This document shows, piece by piece, positions 8,812-43,512 of a stretch of 64,000 nt of DNA. The stretch spans positions 1,056,001 to 1,120,000 of the forward strand of contig CM000155.2 in NCBI GenBank assembly GCA_000004695.1, in the 5' to 3' direction. The DNA comes from Dictyostelium discoideum. Taxonomy: Eukaryota. The notes under the pieces are model-generated. The model had not been told where the DNA came from, did not search any database, and saw only the letters and a list, made by a program, of their open reading frames with translations. Made by a program: the position numbers and the translations under genes. Every line of letters begins with the position of its first letter. Position 1 is the first letter of the stretch.

Positions 8812-9048
8812 AATTAAAATTAAATAATAATAAGTTATTATTTATTTAATTTGTGGTGTGTTTGGGAAAAAAATAAAAAATAAAAAAATAAATAAATTAT
8901 AGTAAATTGACCACCCACAAAATAAATTATTTGTTTTATTTTATTTATTTCATACCACACTTTTCTTTTTACAAATAAATATTCAGTTTTTTTTATTTTT
9001 TTATTTTATTTATTTTTATTTATTTTTTATTTATTAAATACATTTAAA

Positions 9049-9082
<34 letters not shown>

Positions 9083-9128
9083 TCATTATTATTTAATTAT
9101 TTAATTATTTAAAATCTAAAGGATAAAA

Positions 9129-9905
9129 ATGGAATTTAAAAAGATTTTAATAGTAACTATAATTTTTATTGAAATTGTTTTTGGTGGTGGAAATCCAATT
9201 TTCTTAGAAAATAAAATTAGTTTGGGAAAGAATCAATTACAAGCTAATTATCCAGTATTTGATATTCCAGCTAATTATGTAACAATTTTTACCTTAAAAA
9301 TTGATGATTCAATTAAAAATTCAGATATTAATATTAATATTGGTTCACAAAAAGAGAATGGTAATGATTTAATTTTATTACAATTTAATGAATTAAATTA
9401 TGTTCAAGGAAATACACCATTCTTAGTTCAACTATGTACAAATTCAGATGAAGAATTATTTAATATAACATGTTTAAATTATGATAATTCTGATTGTAAA
9501 CTATCAATTTCAGTCAATGCATCAAATTCAAAAAGTTTTTGTTCTCAAACTCTTGATACATCCACTTTTGATGAATTTTTAAAAAACTTTTTCGATTTTG
9601 GTTTCCCACAACTTGGTCAATTTTCTAATGAAAATCAACCACAACAACAACCACAACAACAACCACCACCACAACAACAACCACCACAGCAAGGACAAGA
9701 AGAACAGGTACAAGGACAACAACAACAACAACAACAAGAACAATCAAATGGAAACCAACAAAATCAAGATAATAGTGAAGATAATGGTGAATTAAGACCT
9801 CTAATTAAAAGCCAACAACAACAAAATCAACCAAAATTGAAAATATCAAGATTTAATGATGAAACTAGTAATTGGTTTAATAATTTTTTTAAAAATAATT
9901 TTTAA
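9129..9905 (+). CDS. Secreted, Gln/Pro-rich hypothetical protein, 258 aa
   Basis: Hydrophobic N-terminal signal (MEFKKILIVTIIFIEIVFGG). Cys-containing middle region followed by a (CAA/CCA)n QQQPQQQPPPQQQ tract. No recognisable domain. Confidence 0.5.
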   Translation: MEFKKILIVTIIFIEIVFGGGNPIFLENKISLGKNQLQANYPVFDIPANYVTIFTLKIDDSIKNSDININIGSQKENGNDLILLQFNELNYVQGNTPFLVQLCTNSDEELFNITCLNYDNSDCKLSISVNASNSKSFCSQTLDTSTFDEFLKNFFDFGFPQLGQFSNENQPQQQPQQQPPPQQQPPQQGQEEQVQGQQQQQQQEQSNGNQQNQDNSEDNGELRPLIKSQQQQNQPKLKISRFNDETSNWFNNFFKNNF

Positions 9906-12575: not shown

Positions 12576-13486
12576 AATAAAACAATTGCAAATTTTTTCT
12601 AAATTTTTTTTTTTTTTTTTTTTTTTATTAATAATATTATGATATTTTTATTTTTATTTTTATTTTTTTTATTAATAATATTATTATTTTTATTTTAATT
12701 TAATTTTAATTTATTTTATCTTATTCGGTATAAAATGATAATATTACAATGAAAAACTCTAATTAGTATTAATTATTTTTATTATTTGAAGGAGGGGTGT
12801 ACTAATGTTTTTTTTTTAGATTGCACCAAAATTTAAAAAAAAATAAAATAAAAATAAAAAAAAAAACAAATTAAAAAAAAAAAAAAAAAAAAAAACCAAT
12901 TAAAAAAAAAAAAATAAAATCTAAGCAATTATTTTCACAACACGAATAACAGTTTATATAAATATATAAATATTGCAAATTATATTAACAACCCAAATGA
13001 AATTAAATTCTATAAATAAAAAATAATAATAGTTATTAGTTTATTGACAATGGTTTTTTTTTTTTTTTTTTTTTTTTTTCCAGAGATATAAAAAAAGTAC
13101 ACGATTTCAAATTAAAAAATTTAAAAAAAATTAAAATTTAAAAAAAAAAAATAAAAAAAATTAATTTTAAAAAAAAAAAAAAAAAAGATATCTAAATTTA
13201 TTTTAATTTCATTTAAATTTATTTTAAGCTCAGTTTCATTTGAAAATTCATTCCCTTTATTAAAATCCCCTTTTAAATTATTAGTATTAGTATTTGTTAA
13301 ATGTAAATAAAACAGGAAAAAATAAAAAAAAAATAATATAAAATCAAAAAAAAAATAAAAAATAAAAAAAAATAACCAAAAATAAATAGCAAAATAAACA
13401 ATCAATTAAAAATAAACAATAAACAATTTTTATTTCCGATCGACTCACCAAATTTGTAATTTATTTTAAACACCCACAAAATAAAG

Positions 13487-13532
<46 letters not shown>

Positions 13533-13820
13533 GGCGTTTTTTTTTTTTTTAAAATTTTTTAAATTTTTTTTTTTTAAGTGATAACTGAATTGTCTTTAAA
13601 AATTTTTTTACAAATAAACAACATATAAATAATAATAATAATAATAATTATAATTATAATAATAATAATAGTAATAATTATAATTATAATAATATACTAA
13701 ATTAAAATTTTTATTAATGATAATAGATTAGGAAAAACAATAAAATAAATAATAATAAGAAAATAAAATAAAATAAAATATATAGAGTTTTAAATATATA
13801 TATATTTCAATATATATATA

Positions 13821-14153
13821 ATGAACTCATCAAAGTCGATATCAAGTTCATCGACAATTCATTATCATCCAAAGAATAAAATTAAATTTATTCCATTTGG
13901 ATCAACGACAGCTAATTCAAGTTTTGATGATGAAGAAACAATAAATAACAATAATACCAATAACATAATAGTAAATAGTAAATCACCGATGTCTAATAAA
14001 ACAACAACAACAACAATAATAGATTCAAGAGATCAAAGCACTCATGTAAAAAGTAATAAATTAAATTTTAGCGATGAAATTAGTACAACCAATAAAAGTA
14101 ATAATAGTAATGGTAATAATATAAATGTAGAATATGAAGAAGAAATAAAAAAC

Positions 14154-14212
<59 letters not shown>

Positions 14213-15265
14213 TGATGATTATGACAATAGGTATGATGAAGAGGATCATCTTGTAGATTTTGAAGAAGATGATAAATTCTCATCTTCATCATCTTCATCA
14301 TCTTCATCAAATTCATTGTCAACTTTAGATCAACAACAATATAGCCAGCAGCATCATCATCATCATCACCACCATCATCATAAAAATTCAAATACATTGG
14401 TTGATAGTAGTGGTGGTAGTAGTAGTAGTGGTAGTAAATTATCATATACATTAACATTTATATTTGGTTTAATTGTTATATTTGCATGTATTTTTTATTT
14501 TTCAAAGAATTTAGTATCATTTTTAGAGTTTGTAAAAGAGTTGGGTTTATTGGGTAATGTGATATTGGGTATCGCATTCTTACCAACTGGTATACCATTG
14601 GCAATATTTAGTATATATATACCGTTGACATTATCAGCTGGTTTCATTTATGGATTCGTACCAGGTTTCATCACGGTTGCTATTGGAAGTGCAATCTCTG
14701 CAAGTTTTGGATTTTGGACAACTAGAAAATTATCTTTGAAATTCTTTGAATCAAAAATTGAACAATCACCAAAATTATCTTCACTAAGAAATAGAGTTGA
14801 ACAACATCCTTTCAAAATTATAATCATTATGAGATTATTACCAATTCCATTTGGTATTCAAAATGGTTTATGTGCTGTATGTGTATATTATTATTATTAA
14901 TATTAATATAGTAATACATAAAAAAATATTTACTAATAATTATTATTATTTATTAAAAGGTAACAAGAATTTCATATACAAAATTTATTTATTCATCAGT
15001 GATTGGGTTAACATTTGAAAATCTATTATTATCTTATCTAGGTAGTTCTATAAAATCAATAACAGATATTACAAATGGTCATCAAAATGCGTTTTCATCA
15101 TATCAACAAGGTTTAATTGCAATTGCGATTGTTGCTGCTATAATTTTAACTTGTATTGGTAAAAAGGTTTTATCTTTATCTGCTTATCATCAACCACTAC
15201 CTGTAACAATGAATGATATAAATAATAATAATAATAATGGTATTAATAATGAAAATAATAGTATT

Positions 15266-15322
<57 letters not shown>

Positions 15323-15514
15323 AAAGATAACCAAGCAAAAGATATTGTATTGGTAATAAAATCAACATCTTCATCAAATTTAATACCACCCACTCCAACA
15401 CCTTTAACTTCTGATGTTATATCAATATCAAAAGAAAATAATAATTTAAATTCAACTATTAGTTTAACAACATCAATATCAAATACTACCAAAAAATTAG
15501 AAAAAATTAAATAA
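13821..15514 (+). CDS. TVP38/TMEM64 (DedA/SNARE-associated Golgi protein) family membrane protein, ~536 aa, two exons: join(13821..14876,14960..15514)
   Basis: Long low-complexity N-terminus (poly-N, a His10 tract, poly-S). Then membrane spans and the family motif ...IIIMRLLPIPFGIQNGLCA|VTRISYTKFIYSSVIGLTFENLLLSYLGS, split by an 83-nt intron (GTATGT...AAAAG). Reading through instead gives the stop at 14900. The C-terminal tail is Asn-rich. Confidence 0.72.
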
Positions 15515-15768
15515 TAAATATTATTTTTTGTTTTTCCAGAAATTTTATTTTTATTTTTTTTTTTTAATAAAAATAAAAATAAAAAAATTAATATCAATCT
15601 TTTATTTTTTTTTTTTTTTTTTTAAACAATTTTATAATGTTAATAATATGAAAATTAATTTTCATACTATATTTTTTTTTTTTTTTTTTTTTAATCATTT
15701 TTTTAAACTTTTCTGGCAATGATGTCAGTTGAAAAAAAAAAAACTTAAAAAAAAAAGTAATTAATAAA

Positions 15769-15810
<42 letters not shown>

Positions 15811-15920
15811 GTATTTTTTTTTTTTTTTTTTTTTTTATTTTAAATTATTTTGAAATTTTGGAAAAAAAAAAAAAGAAAAAATTAATTGATTGTTTTAATC
15901 ATTCAATATCATAACAGATA

Positions 15921-25998
<10,078 letters not shown>

Positions 25999-37281: not shown

Positions 37282-40098
37282 ATGTCAACATATTCAAGAT
37301 ATAATGATGAAGATGAAATAAGGAATAATAAAATTTCATTTGGTGATAATATTAAAAGGGAATTTTTACATTTAAAATTATTATTAAAAAAGAATTTATT
37401 AGTCTCAATAAGATCATACTTTTCAACTGGTATTGAAATTTTATCACCTATTGCTTTTATTATAATTTTATTTTTAATTTCTCATTTTGGTTCTGGTAAT
37501 GAAAGTAAGCTAAAAAAATATATATATATATATATAAATAAATATATATAAATAATACTAATATATATATATATATGTGTGTTTTTTTATTTTAAAAAAT
37601 AAAAATAGATCCAATTGTAACATATAATCAAGAATTACCAATTTGTAAATCATATGGTGAAAATAGATGTTTTAATATTATGTTTTCACCAAGTAATTCA
37701 CCATCAGCAATTGCAATTATGGAAATGTTAGGTGAAATTAATAATAATAGTATTTATAGTTATCCAAGTGATACAGGTTATTTACCAGATTTAAACAATA
37801 CTATTGGATTAAAAGGTGGTTTAATTATGATGAATTCAATAGAGGATTCATTTGAATTTGTATTAGCACATCCAAATGTTACAATTGCAGCAGTTGATTT
37901 CTTATCGATTCCACTTGGATTTCAAATTAATGGTGCACCACCCAAAAATGAGCCATTGTTGAAAATGGATGGAAATTCATTGGAATTCAATGTGGTTGTA
38001 AATACAACATGCCCAAATATTTTAGCTACATGTCCGGATTATTCGATTGCGATAACAACAGCTATTGAAAAGGCTGTTATTACATATTACTCACAAAAGA
38101 TTAGAAATGAAAAGATACCACCACCAACAATCTCCTATGGCTCGAATGCGTTCCCACGTTATCCTCCAGAACAGGGGGCAGCAAGGGTTTGGGGTGGCTT
38201 ATTCTATTATTGCGGTTCAATGATATCATTCATATTTTTATTATACAAAGTGTCGTTTGAGAAAGAGAATAAATTGAAACAGGGTATGGTTATGATGGGG
38301 TTGAGTGTCAATCAGTATTGGATTAGTTGGTTCATTACAAGTTTCACCATTGATATATTGATATCGTTGATTACCATTATCGTTGGGTTGGCATGTCAAT
38401 TACCATTCTTTTTGGGTAGCAATTTCTTTGTATTGATAATCACATTTTCATTATTCACAATATCAATGTCATCAGTGGCCTTCTTCCTCCTAACCTTTAT
38501 TCAATCCACAAAGTCAGCAATAGGAATTGGTATGGGTATATTCATCGTTGGTTCAATCTTTCAATTGGTATTCAGTGGTATGGGTACTATGATCTTTGAA
38601 TTAATCTATCAAACCAACAGCAATGGTGCATTGGCTGCAAGAATTATACTTTTCTTTATACCAATGTTTCATTTCACTAAAGTTCTAACTGATATTGGTA
38701 ATGTTACAACAAACTATCCACTACTTACTTATAAGTTCTCTGATCTTTCAACAGATTTAAATATTGGTGGTACTGTATTGAAAACTGTAATTCCAACAAC
38801 TGGTCAATCAATTTGTTATCTATTGGCATTAATTGGAGTTTATACAGTATTGGCATGGTATTTCGAACATATTATACCAGGTAACGATGGTACATCCTCT
38901 CCACCATGGTTTTTTGTTTTACCATCCTATTGGGGTTTATCATTAAAGAAAGTACGTCATATTCCAACACCATATTTCGATGATGAGGATGTTAGAGCTG
39001 CAATAACCAAAGCACATGATGCTTCAAATCGTGCACCATTAATCATTTGTGGTTTATCAAAGAGTTATACTAAACTTTTCAGACCAAAGAAAACAGTTCA
39101 TGCCGTTAAATATTTATCATTATCCGTTGAAAAAGGTACAATTCTTGGTTTCTTGGGTTCAAATGGTTGTGGTAAATCAACAACAATTGGTATGTTAACT
39201 GGTTTACTTGAACCAACTGCTGGTGATGCTTTGGTCTATGGTCATAGTGTCATTAGTAATATTGCTGCCGTTCGTAGAATTACTTCAGTAGTACCACAAC
39301 ATGATATTCTTTGGGCAGAAATGACAGCTAGAGAACATTTACAACTATTCTCTGAATTGAAGGGTATCCCAGCCCAAGAAAGAGAATCTCAAATTCAAAA
39401 GGTTTTAGATCAAGTTAGATTATCAAAAATTTCAAATAACCTAATCTCAACCTATTCAGGTGGCATGAAAAGAAGACTCTCTGTTGCAATCGCTTGCATT
39501 GGTGATCCTAAAATCATCTTTATGGATGAACCTACCACTGGTGTAGATCCTTCCTCAAAGAGACATTTAATAGATTTAGTAAAGAGTATCAAAAATGATA
39601 AAGTAATAATTCTCACCTCTCATGATATGCATGAGGTTGAGATTTTGGCCGACAAAATCGTCATTATGAATGAAGGTGTAATGGCATGCAATGGTAATTC
39701 ATTACAATTGAAATCAAAATATGGTGAAGGTTATTCAGTTAATATCGTAGCCAAATCGCCCGAATCCATACCTGCTGTAGTTGAATTTGTAACTCTTTCA
39801 ATTCCAGGTTGTAAATTTATGAAACAATCCGCTTTACAATTAAATTTTGGTTTCCCTGTAACAATTGATCATCAAATCATTGCAAACTTTTTCAAACAAT
39901 TAGAAGAAATTACAAATGATCCAAATAATCAATTAATGAGAGATTGGTCTGTTTCACATTCTAGTATGTATTATAATATTTATATATATATTTTAAAATC
40001 ATTTTCAAGTTATATTAATCTTTTTTTTTTTTATAATTAAAGCATTGGATGATGTATTTTTAAAGGTTTCTCATTTAGCAAAATTAAAAACACAATAA
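37282..40098 (+). CDS. Half-size ABC transporter, subfamily A, ~877 aa, three exons: join(37282..37504,37609..39963,40043..40098); a paralogue of the adjacent minus-strand ABCA gene
   Basis: Same architecture as its neighbour. Walker A GFLGSNGCGKSTT, signature YSGGMKRRLSVA, Walker B IIFMDEPTTGVD, H-loop LTSHDMHEVE. The C-terminal exon TLDDVFLKVSHLAKLKTQ* is reached via the donor A|GTATGT and acceptor ttaaag|. The N-terminal exon resembles its neighbour's (...IRNNKISFGDNIKREFLHLKLLLKKN vs FFKNATFIKRQKCSL...). Confidence 0.85.
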
Positions 40099-40439
40099 AC
40101 TTATTTATATAAAATAAATTAATTAAAAAAAAATAAAAAAAATAAAATATTGGGTATTCCATTAAAAGCCAAAGTTTGACCAAAAGTTATTTTTATTTTT
40201 TTATTTTTTAGAATTGTTTACCAACCATTTTTTTTAATTATTTTAAATAAAAATAAGTAGGGAAAATAAAAAAAAAAAATTGGTTTAATTAAATTGTTTA
40301 TTTTTTTTATCTACTACTAAATTCAAATTAAAAATAAATAAAAATAAATGGTTATTATATTTTTTTATTATTATTTTTTTATTATTATTTTTTTTATTAT
40401 ATTTTTTTATTATTATTTTTTTTTTTTATTATTACACCT

Positions 40440-41222
40440 TTTTCTTAGTTAATTAGTAGTTTGGGTGGTTTGATTGATTTTTGTTTTAATTGGTTTTTTG
40501 TTTGGACTGTTTTTGGGTGGTTTGATTGGCACTGCTACAGTGGGTGGGTGATGTTTGACCGACTTTAGGGATTTTTTTTTTCATATTGATTTATAACAGT
40601 TTATCCATTAAAGGAAATAAATATTAACTAATAGTTTTAAACAAATTGAATCAAATAATAAAATTGTAATTGATTAGATTAATTGGTGGAAGGAGAAAGT
40701 ATTGGAAGACTGATTCTGGAATGCAATATACTTTGCATATTAATTTTCTTTATTTAATTATTTGTTTGGGTCTTAAAAATTGTTTGGATTTTTGAAAAAG
40801 TTAATTTTAAATATTTTACTTTTTTTATATATTCTAGAGTATCCTTTTTGTACCATTTATTTAGAAGAGTCTATTAAGAGAGCTTTTCATCTGGATAGGT
40901 CATATATTACACATAGTATCCCCATTCAAAGTATTCTTTGTAGAATCTAAGATTATAGGTACAATTCTGTTTGTAAATTTATTTTTGGATTTAATTTTTC
41001 AAGAGTCCAACTTTTTCAAACCTTTCTAATGAAAATGGAGTTTTTGGATCTGTGACCAATAAATTCTAATGTTTTCTTACAATTAAAGAAGAGACCGTAT
41101 TTATCATTCTTATTTTTCATTAACCTTAATTTATGATAGTTTAATGGGTCAAGAAGACCAAGTTTCGAACTTTTAAACTATATTTACGAAGTTCGTAAAT
41201 TTATGATCTATTTAAAACTAAT
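40440..41222. mobile_element. Candidate retroelement remnant (TRE-type?) downstream of the tRNA-Ser gene
   Basis: About 0.8 kb of G/T-rich, ORF-free sequence (for example gggtggtttgattgatttttgttttaattggttttttgtttggactgtttttgggtggtttgattggcactgctacagtgggtgggtg). Its composition (~30-35% GC) is unlike both Dictyostelium coding and intergenic DNA. Dictyostelium TRE3 elements are known to sit ~100 bp downstream of tRNA genes. The identity was not verified. Confidence 0.3.
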
Positions 41223-41304
41223 CGACATCGGCAGGGTTCGAACCTGCGCCTCCTAGGAGATTTGATTTCAAGTCAAACGCGTTAGACCACTTCGCTACGA
41301 TGTC
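41223..41304 (-). tRNA. tRNA-Ser (anticodon UGA), 82 nt, with a long variable arm
   Basis: Minus-strand sequence GACATCG TA GCG AAGTGGTCTAA CGC G TTTGA CTTGAAA TCAAA TCTCCTAGGAGGC GCAGG TTCGAAC CCTGC CGATGTC G. It has a perfect 7-bp acceptor stem, a D-arm, a 5-bp anticodon stem with the loop cU-UGA-AA, a 13-nt variable arm (class II), and a T-arm with TTCGA. CCA is not encoded. Confidence 0.85.
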
Positions 41305-42720
41305 TTTGATGAAATTGTAATGAACGTCGTATTCCAATTCCTATGGAATACTCTTTATAATTTGTATATACGTATATACTTGTGTGACCCTTGAACACAC
41401 AGAAATAATTAATAATAAATAATAAATGATAAATAATATTATATCTCTTATATAATATAATAAAGCTTTCGTTTGTGCACAATTTGGAATGAAACAACAA
41501 TGAATTAATTTTTATTTTATTTACTATTTATACTAAAATTAATTTTACTAAAGAAACCATTGGTAAAATTTCTGAGAATAAAGTAAGAATCTTGTATTTG
41601 TTAACGTCTTTTCAGTTACAGATTTATTTCTATATTTGTATTTTACCAGGGATAAAAACTTTATATATTAATTTATGTCGCTTAATTATTCGCGATTATT
41701 ACAAAATTTTATATTTTTTGCATTCCTCGTTTTTTTATTAATTTTTCGAACAAAAGAAAGATAAAACACATCTTCTTTAACTGTAAAATAATTCTACCAA
41801 TCTGTAATGATATATACTCGAAAGTGACTTCTATTACTAACAATACCAAGTATGGCATCTGGTCTGAATCCATTCTTTAAAGATTATACGATAAGTTTCA
41901 AGAAAATTTAGTGGGTGCAATTATGGAAGTAATATGGATAAGAAGAAACTCGATAAAATTTGATAATGAAGATAAAGCGGTTACTTTGAATTTGGTAGTT
42001 TACATTTTATCAAAAACAAGGGATGCTGAATGGGTAGAATAATTAAGGTTATCGAACATTTAAGAAGAAGGGAAATAAAAAATTCCCAAATAGATCATAC
42101 GTGGAAGATAATGAATAAGTTGGAAAAGTTTATCCACGTCTGGAATTCGCAACTGATGAAAACTTATGTACCTGAACATTTAACCCATTACAGCTCTTTC
42201 AATACTAATTTTATAAATTCATACATAAAAATATATATATATTATACTTAAATAAAATTAAATAAAACAAGGACACATCTCAATTTGGGATGAGGTCATT
42301 AAAAAAAAAAAAATAAAAAAAAAAAAGAAAGATACCTATGTACAAATCAAGTAAAACTGCCAGAAAGCCTGGCTGAAATTAAAACGCTCCAAACCAAACT
42401 TCTAGCCCCTACCAAAACTAAAAAGAATAAATACCAAACGACTTTATCATATCCAGATTTCAACTTCTTCTCCCCAATTACAGACCTAAGGATTAGAATA
42501 TCTCAAGTCCCAATTGTATTATCCAATTCAAAAAAAGTTTTAAAATGGGAGAACATTCAAGCCATTTTCACAAAAATTAACTTTTTCAAAAGATCCTACC
42601 AATTTAAAGATCCAAAGAAAACCAAAAATAAAATATTAATTTTTTTAAGCTAATTTGATATAAACAGACTCTAAATATGATGCAAAAAAAAATAAAAAAA
42701 AAAATAAAAAAATAAATAAT
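41305..42720. mobile_element. Candidate retroelement remnant (TRE5-type?) upstream of the tRNA-Ser gene
   Basis: About 1.4 kb of moderately complex, ORF-poor sequence begins immediately 5' of the tRNA. The only ORF (42030..42251, 73 aa) has no recognisable domain. TRE5 elements insert ~50 bp upstream of Dictyostelium tRNA genes. The identity was not verified. Confidence 0.3.
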
Positions 42721-43512
42721 AATAAATCTAATTTTGTTTTTTTTTTTTTTCCCAAGATTTATCTATTTTTATAATTAAATAAAATTTCAATAATATATTT
42801 ATTATAATAAAAATAACAATCAATTTTCATTAAATCGGATAAATATTTGTACTGTTGTAATTTTTAATTAAAAAATAAAATAAAAAATATCTGTCTCGTC
42901 TAAAAATGCTTTTTTGGAAGTGCTGAGTTTTCAGATGACTCACACATAAAAAAAAAAAAAAAAAAAAAGAAAAATTAAATTAAAATAAAATTTATTTTTT
43001 TAAAATTATCACTTTTTTTATTTTTTATCTTTTTTTTTTTTTTTTTTTTTTTTTGTCTTTTTAAAAAAAAATAAAAAAAAATAAAAAAATAAAAAATTAG
43101 ATTTCAAGAAATTATTTATTTATATTAAATATTTGATTTTTATAATTGAACTTAAAAAATAAAAAAAAAATAAAAAAAAAAATAAAAAAAATTAAAAATA
43201 AAAAAAATAAAAAATTTTTCAATTTTTTTTTTTTTTATTCATCATTATTGATTTTGACTTTTTTTATGACCATAAAAAAAATATCAACATATTACTGCAT
43301 CATCAACATCCACAACAACAACAACAAAAGAAATAATTACTAAATAACAAACGGACGATAGTTTAGTAATTTTCGATATTTATAGAAAAAAAAAAAAAAC
43401 AAAAAGGAATTTCAATATATAGTTATATTTGAAAATCTACAATAAAACTATTGTTGTATTATATTAAAAAAACACTCACTCACACAAATATATATATATA
43501 AAAACTTTGAAA

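Follow-up and report, generated by a model that had tools for sequence, protein, structure and literature searches.

A gene-free block around a tRNA-Ser(UGA) gene of Dictyostelium discoideum, read as stacked retrotransposon debris

Several retrotransposon families of Dictyostelium settle beside tRNA genes, each by a rule of its own. TRE5 elements (TRE, tRNA-targeted retroelement) insert 44-54 bp upstream of the gene (range 34-95 bp), the element's 5' end being turned toward that of the tRNA (PMC3159450, PMC5911963, PMC5006619); TRE3 elements share the orientation of the tRNA and insert on its downstream side, at 40-150 bp (PMC5911963). DGLT-A, a Ty3/gypsy element flanked by long terminal repeats (LTRs), has been reported in either orientation relative to the tRNA. 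Its hallmarks are a single open reading frame (ORF) that lacks a chromodomain, a primer-binding site (PBS) that follows the left LTR at 2 bp and a polypurine tract (PPT) that precedes the right one; no full-length copy has been reported in strain AX4, and the family has been suggested to be no longer active (PMC5006619). TREs may also accumulate sequentially or in tandem at one tRNA gene (PMC5006619 supplement). What does such stacking leave behind? The case described here is a tRNA-Ser(UGA) gene and the roughly 2.3 kb around it (positions 40440-42720) in a 64,000-nucleotide stretch of D. discoideum DNA, hereafter the window (GCA_000004695.1, contig CM000155.2, positions 1,056,001 to 1,120,000 of the forward strand).

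This gene-free block is very probably a stack of retrotransposon debris, with at least four dead fragments left by elements that targeted the tRNA-Ser gene. Three element classes (TRE5, TRE3 and DGLT-A) lie stacked at one gene, each at a characteristic distance and orientation. The block is not single-copy: the 3' part of a TRE3-type element, an LTR and a TRE5-type copy are all related to sequences beside other tRNA genes of D. discoideum. An earlier sequence-only reading had taken the tRNA for an integration landmark among TRE5 and TRE3 remnants, had listed DGLT-A among the repeats worth checking, and had held that a single-copy block without similarity to any repeat would speak against it. 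That reading is borne out: copies of TRE5 and TRE3 type are both present on the expected sides, a solo LTR of DGLT-A type lies between the tRNA and the TRE5-type copy, and relatives recur at other tRNA loci.

Remnants on both sides of the tRNA-Ser gene

The landmark itself, the tRNA-Ser(UGA) gene, lies at 41223..41304 on the minus strand, at exactly the position first proposed (ARAGORN; Rfam RF00005, 64.8 bits, E 5e-13), and its 5' side is therefore at higher coordinates; a TTTT terminator can be read 6-9 nt downstream. The locus has an ABCA-type transporter gene on one side and a Sec13-like WD40 gene on the other. Taken as a whole, the window is typical of Dictyostelium DNA. The surroundings of the tRNA are as atypical as had been claimed: G+C is 0.20-0.37 over 40440-42650 as against 0.05-0.16 in the flanking intergenic DNA, and an ORF search finds no intact frame in the ~2.3-kb block. 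A 0.8-kb G/T-rich block had been described on the 3' side; G/T-richness of the plus strand is real over 40400-40800, on which it is centred (GC skew +0.44 to +0.50), but elsewhere in the 3'-side block the skew is no more than mild. On the other side, 42300-42650 is A/C-rich on the plus strand (GC skew about -0.4). A repeat search of the whole window returned low-complexity families only.

The best-preserved remnant is a 5'-truncated copy of a TRE5-type non-LTR retrotransposon, 559 bp long (41764..42322, plus strand), recognised by protein, tblastn and blastn matches. It holds the C-terminus of ORF2, beginning with an H-x4-C zinc-knuckle remnant and interrupted by one stop and one frameshift (41767-42033 and 42036-42251); a 49-nt 3' untranslated region (UTR) that ends in a terminal hairpin, ...GGACACATCTCAATTTGGGATGAGGTCATT (42271-42300); and a poly(A) tail (42301-42322). 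The copy is framed by a target-site duplication (TSD) of 12 bp, AAAAGAAAGATA, whose left (41752-41763) and right (42323-42334) copies match at 12 of 12 positions. The translation of 41767-42251 is 56-88% identical to six D. discoideum proteins (P0001-P0006) in a protein search, and tblastn gives 61-77% identity to a further protein, P0007. The 73-aa ORF at 42030..42251, the only ORF singled out at the outset and described as lacking a domain, indeed has no Pfam domain but is not anonymous: it is 77% identical to P0007 residues 436-497, the extreme ORF2 C-terminus of a non-LTR retrotransposon.

Where does this copy begin? At the DNA level it is 79-90% identical (blastn) to copies at seven other loci (L001-L004 and L007-L009, fetched for comparison among nine loci overall, L001-L009), and in all seven comparisons identity starts sharply at 41765-41772; the window copy is thus 5'-truncated. 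An apparent homology further left (tblastn from 41695) was discarded as a chance product of T-rich codons, given that DNA identity stops at 41765-41772 and the TSD abuts there. The copy lies on the plus strand with its poly(A) distal to the minus-strand tRNA, that is, upstream of the gene and in the opposite orientation. Its present distance from the tRNA, 459 bp, departs from the expected ~50 bp because a solo LTR was inserted in between; once the 388-bp LTR and a 4-bp duplication are subtracted, 67 bp remain, within the published TRE5 range of 34-95 bp.

The intervening solo LTR (41316..41703) starts 11 bp upstream of the tRNA-Ser gene, is 388 bp long and has the termini TGTAATG...TATTACA. 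It was assigned to the DGLT-A type of Ty3/gypsy by homology: positions 41313-41706 are 88-89% identical over ~400 bp to two sequences 5.4 kb apart in L009, which are the two LTRs of one element (blastn and full-length alignment). The sense strand is the minus strand, and the orientation is opposite to that of the L009 element. AAAT flanks the LTR as a 4-bp duplication (41312..41315 and 41704-41707), a weak sign when taken alone, being a 4-mer in AT-rich DNA. Inspection by eye of 41305-41763 had revealed no TSD, poly(A) or LTR ends; the homology to L009 settled the boundaries. The LTR and TSD boundaries also delimit what is left of the original tRNA-upstream spacer (41704..41763), which holds the right AAAT and the left TSD and resembles none of the loci compared. 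The 5'-side block, which had been viewed as one unit, does consist of retroelement remnants, but of an LTR, a TRE5 copy and an older TRE5-like fragment rather than a single TRE.

The L009 element occupies 13441-19267 of that locus in the D. discoideum assembly GCA_054859385.1 and is an apparently intact ~5.8-kb element of DGLT-A type, with LTRs of about 385 bp that are 99% identical (383/387). A single uninterrupted ORF of 1494 aa carries zf-CCHC, PR, RT (reverse transcriptase), RNaseH and IN domains and gives no match to a chromodomain; the PBS begins 2 nt after the left LTR, the PPT abuts the right LTR, and some 10-13 bp separate the near LTR from tRNA-Val(AAC), upstream of which the element stands. 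The window LTR thus matches, over its full length, both LTRs of a single-ORF, chromodomain-less element that bears a PBS and a PPT. The PBS (13828-13841), TGGCGACATCGG, pairs without mismatch with CCA and the 9 terminal nt at the 3' end of tRNA-Ser(UGA) in the window (41223-41234); judging from this complementarity, the family appears to prime reverse transcription with tRNA-Ser, and it is probably a coincidence that the solo LTR adjoins a tRNA-Ser gene.

On the 3' side of the tRNA lies a 5'-truncated copy of TRE3 type (40591..41165, minus strand), identified by tblastn matches to P0141 and P0038 and by DNA motifs shared with other tRNA loci. Its decayed ORF2 C-terminus, with frameshifts, stops and a zinc-knuckle remnant YGLFFNCKKTLEFI, runs from 41147 to 40708; a 3'UTR motif, TTTCCTTTAATGGATAAAC, follows at 40599-40617, and an A10 run at 40581..40590 is a putative short poly(A) tail. 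These matches emerged when 161 proteins, obtained in an exhaustive representative search with P0007, were compared locally with the window by tblastn. P0141, from D. cf. discoideum, matches the minus strand at 41147-41019, 40954-40790 and 40800-40708, three segments that are collinear and shifted in frame, with 44-54% identity and a combined E of 1e-13, the first segment including YGLFFNCKKTLEFI; P0038, from D. purpureum, in which only TRE3-type TREs have been reported (PMC5006619), is 62% identical over 29 aa at the same zinc-knuckle motif. Both proteins carry RVT_1 (113 bits in P0038), and P0045, 41% identical to P0141, has APE and RT.

DNA comparisons place the same 3' part at other tRNA genes. 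AGATGAAAAGCTCTCTTA is found exactly in the window and 94 bp downstream of the L004 tRNA-Leu; the window, L004 (at two places) and L006 all have TTTCCTTTAATGGATAAAC followed by ...CAATAT and an A run; and an 89-bp match lies ~100 bp downstream of tRNA-Met in L001. The TRE3-type 3' part thus recurs downstream of tRNA-Leu (twice), tRNA-Pro (L006) and tRNA-Met, always in the tRNA's orientation, and the related copies share their 3' end point, ...TCAATATG / CAATATT / CAATAAAA. The fragments at tRNA-Leu and tRNA-Met start ~90-100 bp after the gene. The 5' end of the window copy falls within 41147-41177, that is, 46-76 bp downstream of the tRNA-Ser gene and in its orientation, as the published TRE3 rule has it. 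From these alignments the block is read as the final third of ORF2, together with the 3'UTR, from an element of the TRE3 lineage, the lineage label being indirect. Close to this end, at 41162..41170 on the minus strand (53-61 nt downstream of the tRNA), lies GTTCGAAAC, which resembles an external B box (exB box); compared by eye with the B-box consensus GTTCRAnYC quoted in PMC3159450, it may be an exB box or a piece of the TRE3-type target or junction.

A 134-aa eIF_4EBP model at L004 7155-8580 spans 1.4 kb. Downstream of tRNA-Leu it overlaps fragments of the TRE3-type 3' part as well as a simple repeat that is long and AT-rich; it is probably a real exon joined to retroelement debris.

Relatives at other tRNA genes and the naming of the families

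The TRE5-type copies of L001-L004 and L007-L009 each lie upstream of a minus-strand tRNA gene and on the opposite strand. In three of these loci no other element comes between the copy and the tRNA: the distance is 43 bp to tRNA-Leu in L004, 59 bp to tRNA-Arg in L008 and 43 bp to tRNA-Val in L009, and each copy carries a TSD of 9-11 bp. In the other four (L001-L003 and L007), the copy was shifted outward by later insertions of a 643-bp element, which is as long as the A, B and C modules published for TRE5-A taken together. The copies range from 0.56 to 3.1 kb and share one 3' end, ...GGACACATCTCAA(A/T)TTGGGATGAGGTCATT, followed by poly(A). In position and orientation they behave exactly as published for TRE5.

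Do these relatives encode the enzymes expected of a non-LTR retrotransposon? Longer copies of the lineage carry RVT_1, namely P0007 (24.7 bits, partial) and a 655-aa gene in L008. A D. cf. discoideum protein, P0017, is a 1056-aa ORF2 that is 72% identical to P0007 and scores 129 bits for RVT_1; its residues 1-262 are 57% identical to L005 8846-9628, overlapping an ORF there (8846-9534) that was scored as Exo_endo_phos. The window copy keeps only the H-x4-C remnant and the C-terminus, and no APE domain was scored directly in the P0007-type lineage.

Which TRE5 subfamily is present in the window? A probe of the TRE5-A modules (A, B and C, taken from the 643-bp element of L003) found only low-complexity matches in the window, and the copy is not TRE5-A, since it has none of the three modules; the proposed check of TRE5-A module boundaries is therefore beside the point here. 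The P0007-type lineage is probably TRE5-B, as judged from its 3' end, which has no B or C module, and from copies of up to 3.1 kb: both fit the description of TRE5-B over that of TRE5-C, whose consensus is only 879 bp long and has a C-module (PMC3159450, PMC5006619). The choice between the labels B and C remains uncertain; an attempt to assign the name TRE5-C through C-module identity and the mutation numbering of PMC3159450 led to no decision.

Four lineages were seen in TRE5 position and orientation: the TRE5-A module element (L003 8826-9468) and the P0007-, P0010- and P0018-types, the further coordinates being L005 6552-12638, L009 19312-20120 and L004 9846-11628. ORF2 identity among the P0007-, P0010- and P0018-types is 38-52%, and some TRE5-like lineages were seen in particular assemblies only. 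The L005 element is a separate one of 6.09 kb, with APE, RT and a TSD, which lies 48 bp upstream of tRNA-Thr and has ~52% ORF2 identity; it could equally take the name TRE5-B. Three TRE5-type lineages share GAACACA-hairpin-GAGGTYATT directly before the poly(A) (window 42271-42300, L003 ~9420-9450, L005 ~12590-12623), and the stems vary by compensating changes (CACTTG/CAAGTG, CACCCA/TGGGTG, CATCTC/GGGATG). This covariation suggests a conserved RNA structure at the 3' terminus, as has been proposed for the TRE5-A C-module. At L001 8392-9130, three tandem partial copies of a TRE5-A-like 5' end (~95 bp each, spaced ~245 bp) precede a complete 640-bp copy, all of them upstream of tRNA-Leu(UAG).

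The outer fragments and the rival explanations

Beyond the TRE5-type copy lies a segment of older appearance. Positions 42335..42500 (plus strand) match, by tblastn, a TRE5-like ORF2 region just N-terminal of the zinc knuckle and of the P0018/P0059-type lineage: P0059 aligns at 42340-42429 (52% identity) and 42444-42476 (73%) with an E of 3.5e-5, and P0015, P0041 and P0070 match the same places within 42340-42476. Three of these proteins (P0059, P0041 and P0070) belong to D. citrinum, the fourth (P0015) to D. cf. discoideum; the segment is tied to a retroelement by protein-level similarity only, to ORF2 fragments of sibling species. A copy of the P0018 type stands in TRE5 configuration at L009 19312-20120, and the older fragment in the window starts directly after the TSD of the later TRE5-type copy, as expected of stacked TRE5 insertions. 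It is followed by an A/C-rich continuation (42501..42720, plus strand), recognised by composition, which ends in an A-rich run at 42686-42720 and is probably the decayed or internally deleted rest of the older element plus its tail. A frame of 105 codons without a stop, and without a start codon of its own, extends over 42336-42653 on the plus strand; its G+C is flat across codon positions, as in the TRE copy and unlike in host genes, and it is probably a relic of retroelement coding sequence rather than a host gene.

At the opposite edge, a block that is C/A-rich on the minus strand (40436..40580; A 0.51, C 0.28), hence G/T-rich on the plus strand, holds CAATCAAACCACCCAAA twice, at 40460-40476 and 40512-40528. 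The same 17-mer, with flanking identities, recurs at L006 3430-3446, right after the TRE3-type 3' motif. The block could be an older retroelement tail or a piece of a TRE3-type 3'UTR; the latter was tried by alignment, which was not convincing past the conserved motif.

How much of the block, then, is retroelement? That only part of it is, with 40436-40580, 41704-41763 and ~42500-42720 (perhaps all of 42335-42720) being unique intergenic DNA or a decayed host pseudogene, is possible, though on balance unlikely. Such a reading would explain why the leftover pieces have no homologue at the DNA or protein level among the nine loci and the protein databases, and it can draw on two open frames: that of 42336-42653, a length reached by only 5 of 5000 composition-preserving shuffles, and one of 136 codons that starts from an ATG at 41675 when 41675-41763 is joined across the TSD. 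The second frame, with its hydrophobic N-terminus, was considered as a small host gene split by the TRE5-type insertion, and was rejected because codon-position G+C is flat and the only homologies lie in two frames of a TRE5-like ORF2. Indeed, 42340-42476 matches TRE5-like ORF2 fragments in both these frames, and the G+C by codon position, 0.30/0.31/0.31, follows the TRE copy (0.29/0.28/0.31) and not the host exons (0.17-0.23 at the third position, 0.38-0.45 at the first). The A/C-rich sense strand resembles the P0018-type copy in L009, and the tandem stacking documented for TREs is seen in L001-L003, L007 and L009. A far more radical alternative, that of a non-coding RNA locus missed by annotation or of unusual regulatory DNA, is extremely improbable. 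It can point to the small hairpin at the TRE5-type 3' end, but Rfam yields nothing positive in its favour, the tRNA being the sole family detected over 39500-43500 even at E up to 1; about 1.5 of the 2.3 kb shows homology to retroelement sequences that are multi-copy and have relatives with RT, and TSDs and a poly(A) tail mark insertions.

The reading as stacked retroelement debris has several points to set against it. The match of the older fragment is short, switches frame and, with E 3.5e-5 per query, amounts to about 0.006 over the 161 queries; 40436-40580 and ~42500-42720 have no significant homologue within the scope just given. Concatenated six-frame pieces of the unexplained segments likewise found no match among 5.8 billion proteins at E up to 0.1, because the decayed fragments are too short and diverged for a database of this size; local tblastn found them later. 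A tblastx comparison of the pre-insertion sequence with the loci gave nothing. The TRE3-type copy has an A10 tail only and no clean TSD, a possible decayed one being TAAAAGTTCGAAAC versus TAAAGTCGGTCAAAC (by eye). Family names rest on architecture, position and descriptions in the literature, not on alignment to consensus sequences. Over its last 87 nt, the TRE5-type lineage shares 64% identity with the C-module of TRE5-A, as against the 78% reported for TRE5-C, and four TRE5-like lineages were seen where the literature names three (TRE5-A, -B and -C). For the LTR, the figures of 388 bp (window) and ~385 bp (L009) compare with 265 bp for Dd_DGLT-A (PMC5006619), and the distances from the tRNA, 11 bp and ~10-13 bp, fall just outside the published DGLT-A range of 13-33 bp. 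Either the published length is that of a shorter consensus, or the window LTR belongs to a DGLT-A variant. Could it stem from another Ty3/gypsy family, such as Skipper or an undescribed family that targets tRNA genes? The length of 388 bp is indeed near the 390 bp of the Skipper-1 LTR, and the L009 element, at ~5.8 kb, exceeds the 5054-bp DGLT-A consensus, but this origin is quite improbable: Skipper carries two ORFs and a chromodomain, shows a polypyrimidine tract instead of a PBS and targets centromeres (PMC5006619), whereas the L009 element, with an uninterrupted frame from a GAG-like zinc knuckle to IN, no chromodomain match, a PBS and a PPT, and its place beside a tRNA gene, displays the published hallmarks of DGLT-A.

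One further tRNA call in the window lies far from the block. ARAGORN reports a 'tRNA-Tyr' at 14781-14865 on the minus strand, with the impossible anticodon ATA; it sits inside coding-like sequence with no adjacent retroelement or TRE, and the call is probably false.

Likely order of insertions and comparison with known systems

If the remnants are stacked as described, their nesting gives a relative chronology, in which the tRNA-Ser(UGA) gene would have served as a repeated landing pad for retrotransposons that recognise genes transcribed by RNA polymerase III (Pol III). On the 5' side, a TRE5-like element of the P0018/P0059 type would have arrived first, its 5' end toward the tRNA, and the ORF2 fragment from 42335 to ~42500, perhaps to 42720, would be what survives of it. 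A P0007-type TRE5 element would then have entered ~67 bp upstream of the gene by target-primed reverse transcription, pushing the older fragment outward. Last, an element of DGLT-A type would have entered 11 bp upstream; recombination between its LTRs may later have reduced it to the 388-bp solo LTR, and this insertion would have shifted the TRE5 copy to its present 459 bp. On the 3' side, a TRE3-type element, cut short at its 5' end inside the final third of ORF2, would have entered 46-76 bp downstream and in the orientation of the tRNA. By analogy with TRE5-A, for which it has been published, targeting may have relied on interaction with TFIIIB/TFIIIC.

All copies at the tRNA-Ser gene are dead, and nothing points to a function beyond that of marking a tolerated integration site. 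tRNA-targeted retrotransposition of this kind is known biology, and the locus is an ordinary one; it is a textbook case of a gene-dense genome in which retrotransposons are kept to harmless sites beside tRNA genes, and its correct annotation keeps the block from passing as a small gene, as regulatory DNA or as a locus for non-coding RNA. It is conceivable, if rather doubtful, that the debris samples a retroelement diversity beyond the AX4 catalogue, with four TRE5-configured lineages, a DGLT-A type with a 388-bp LTR and the apparently intact L009 element; were this true, DGLT-A-type elements would still be mobile in natural populations, though considered extinct in AX4. For specialists in Dictyostelium transposons, the apparently intact copy and the additional lineages of TRE5-like elements in newly sequenced strains may be of interest.

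How does the locus compare with the systems already described? With TRE5-A/DRE, TRE5-B and TRE5-C, the window's TRE5-type copy shares the upstream site, the 5' end directed toward the tRNA, 5' truncation, a poly(A) tail and a TSD, as well as an ORF2 C-terminus with a zinc-knuckle remnant, RT in longer copies and sister copies at 43-59 bp. It differs from TRE5-A in having no modules and in its 3'UTR of 49 nt (~87 nt in sister copies), with only the terminal hairpin motif in common with the C-module. The downstream copy resembles TRE3-A/Tdd-3, TRE3-B, TRE3-C and TRE3-D in its site, its orientation, its 5' truncation and the homology of its ORF2 C-terminus; unlike them, it is heavily decayed (at least three frames and several stops), with an A10 tail and an imperfect TSD. 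The solo LTR agrees with DGLT-A / 'H3R' solo LTRs in its TG...CA termini, its 4-bp flanking duplication and its site directly upstream of the tRNA, but departs from them in length (388 versus 265 bp) and distance (11 versus 13-33 bp). Further afield, yeast Ty3 and Ty1 likewise use Pol III genes as safe-haven sites, and their solo LTRs also pile up upstream of tRNA genes; the host and the lineages are different, and Dictyostelium has, in addition, non-LTR elements on both sides of the gene.

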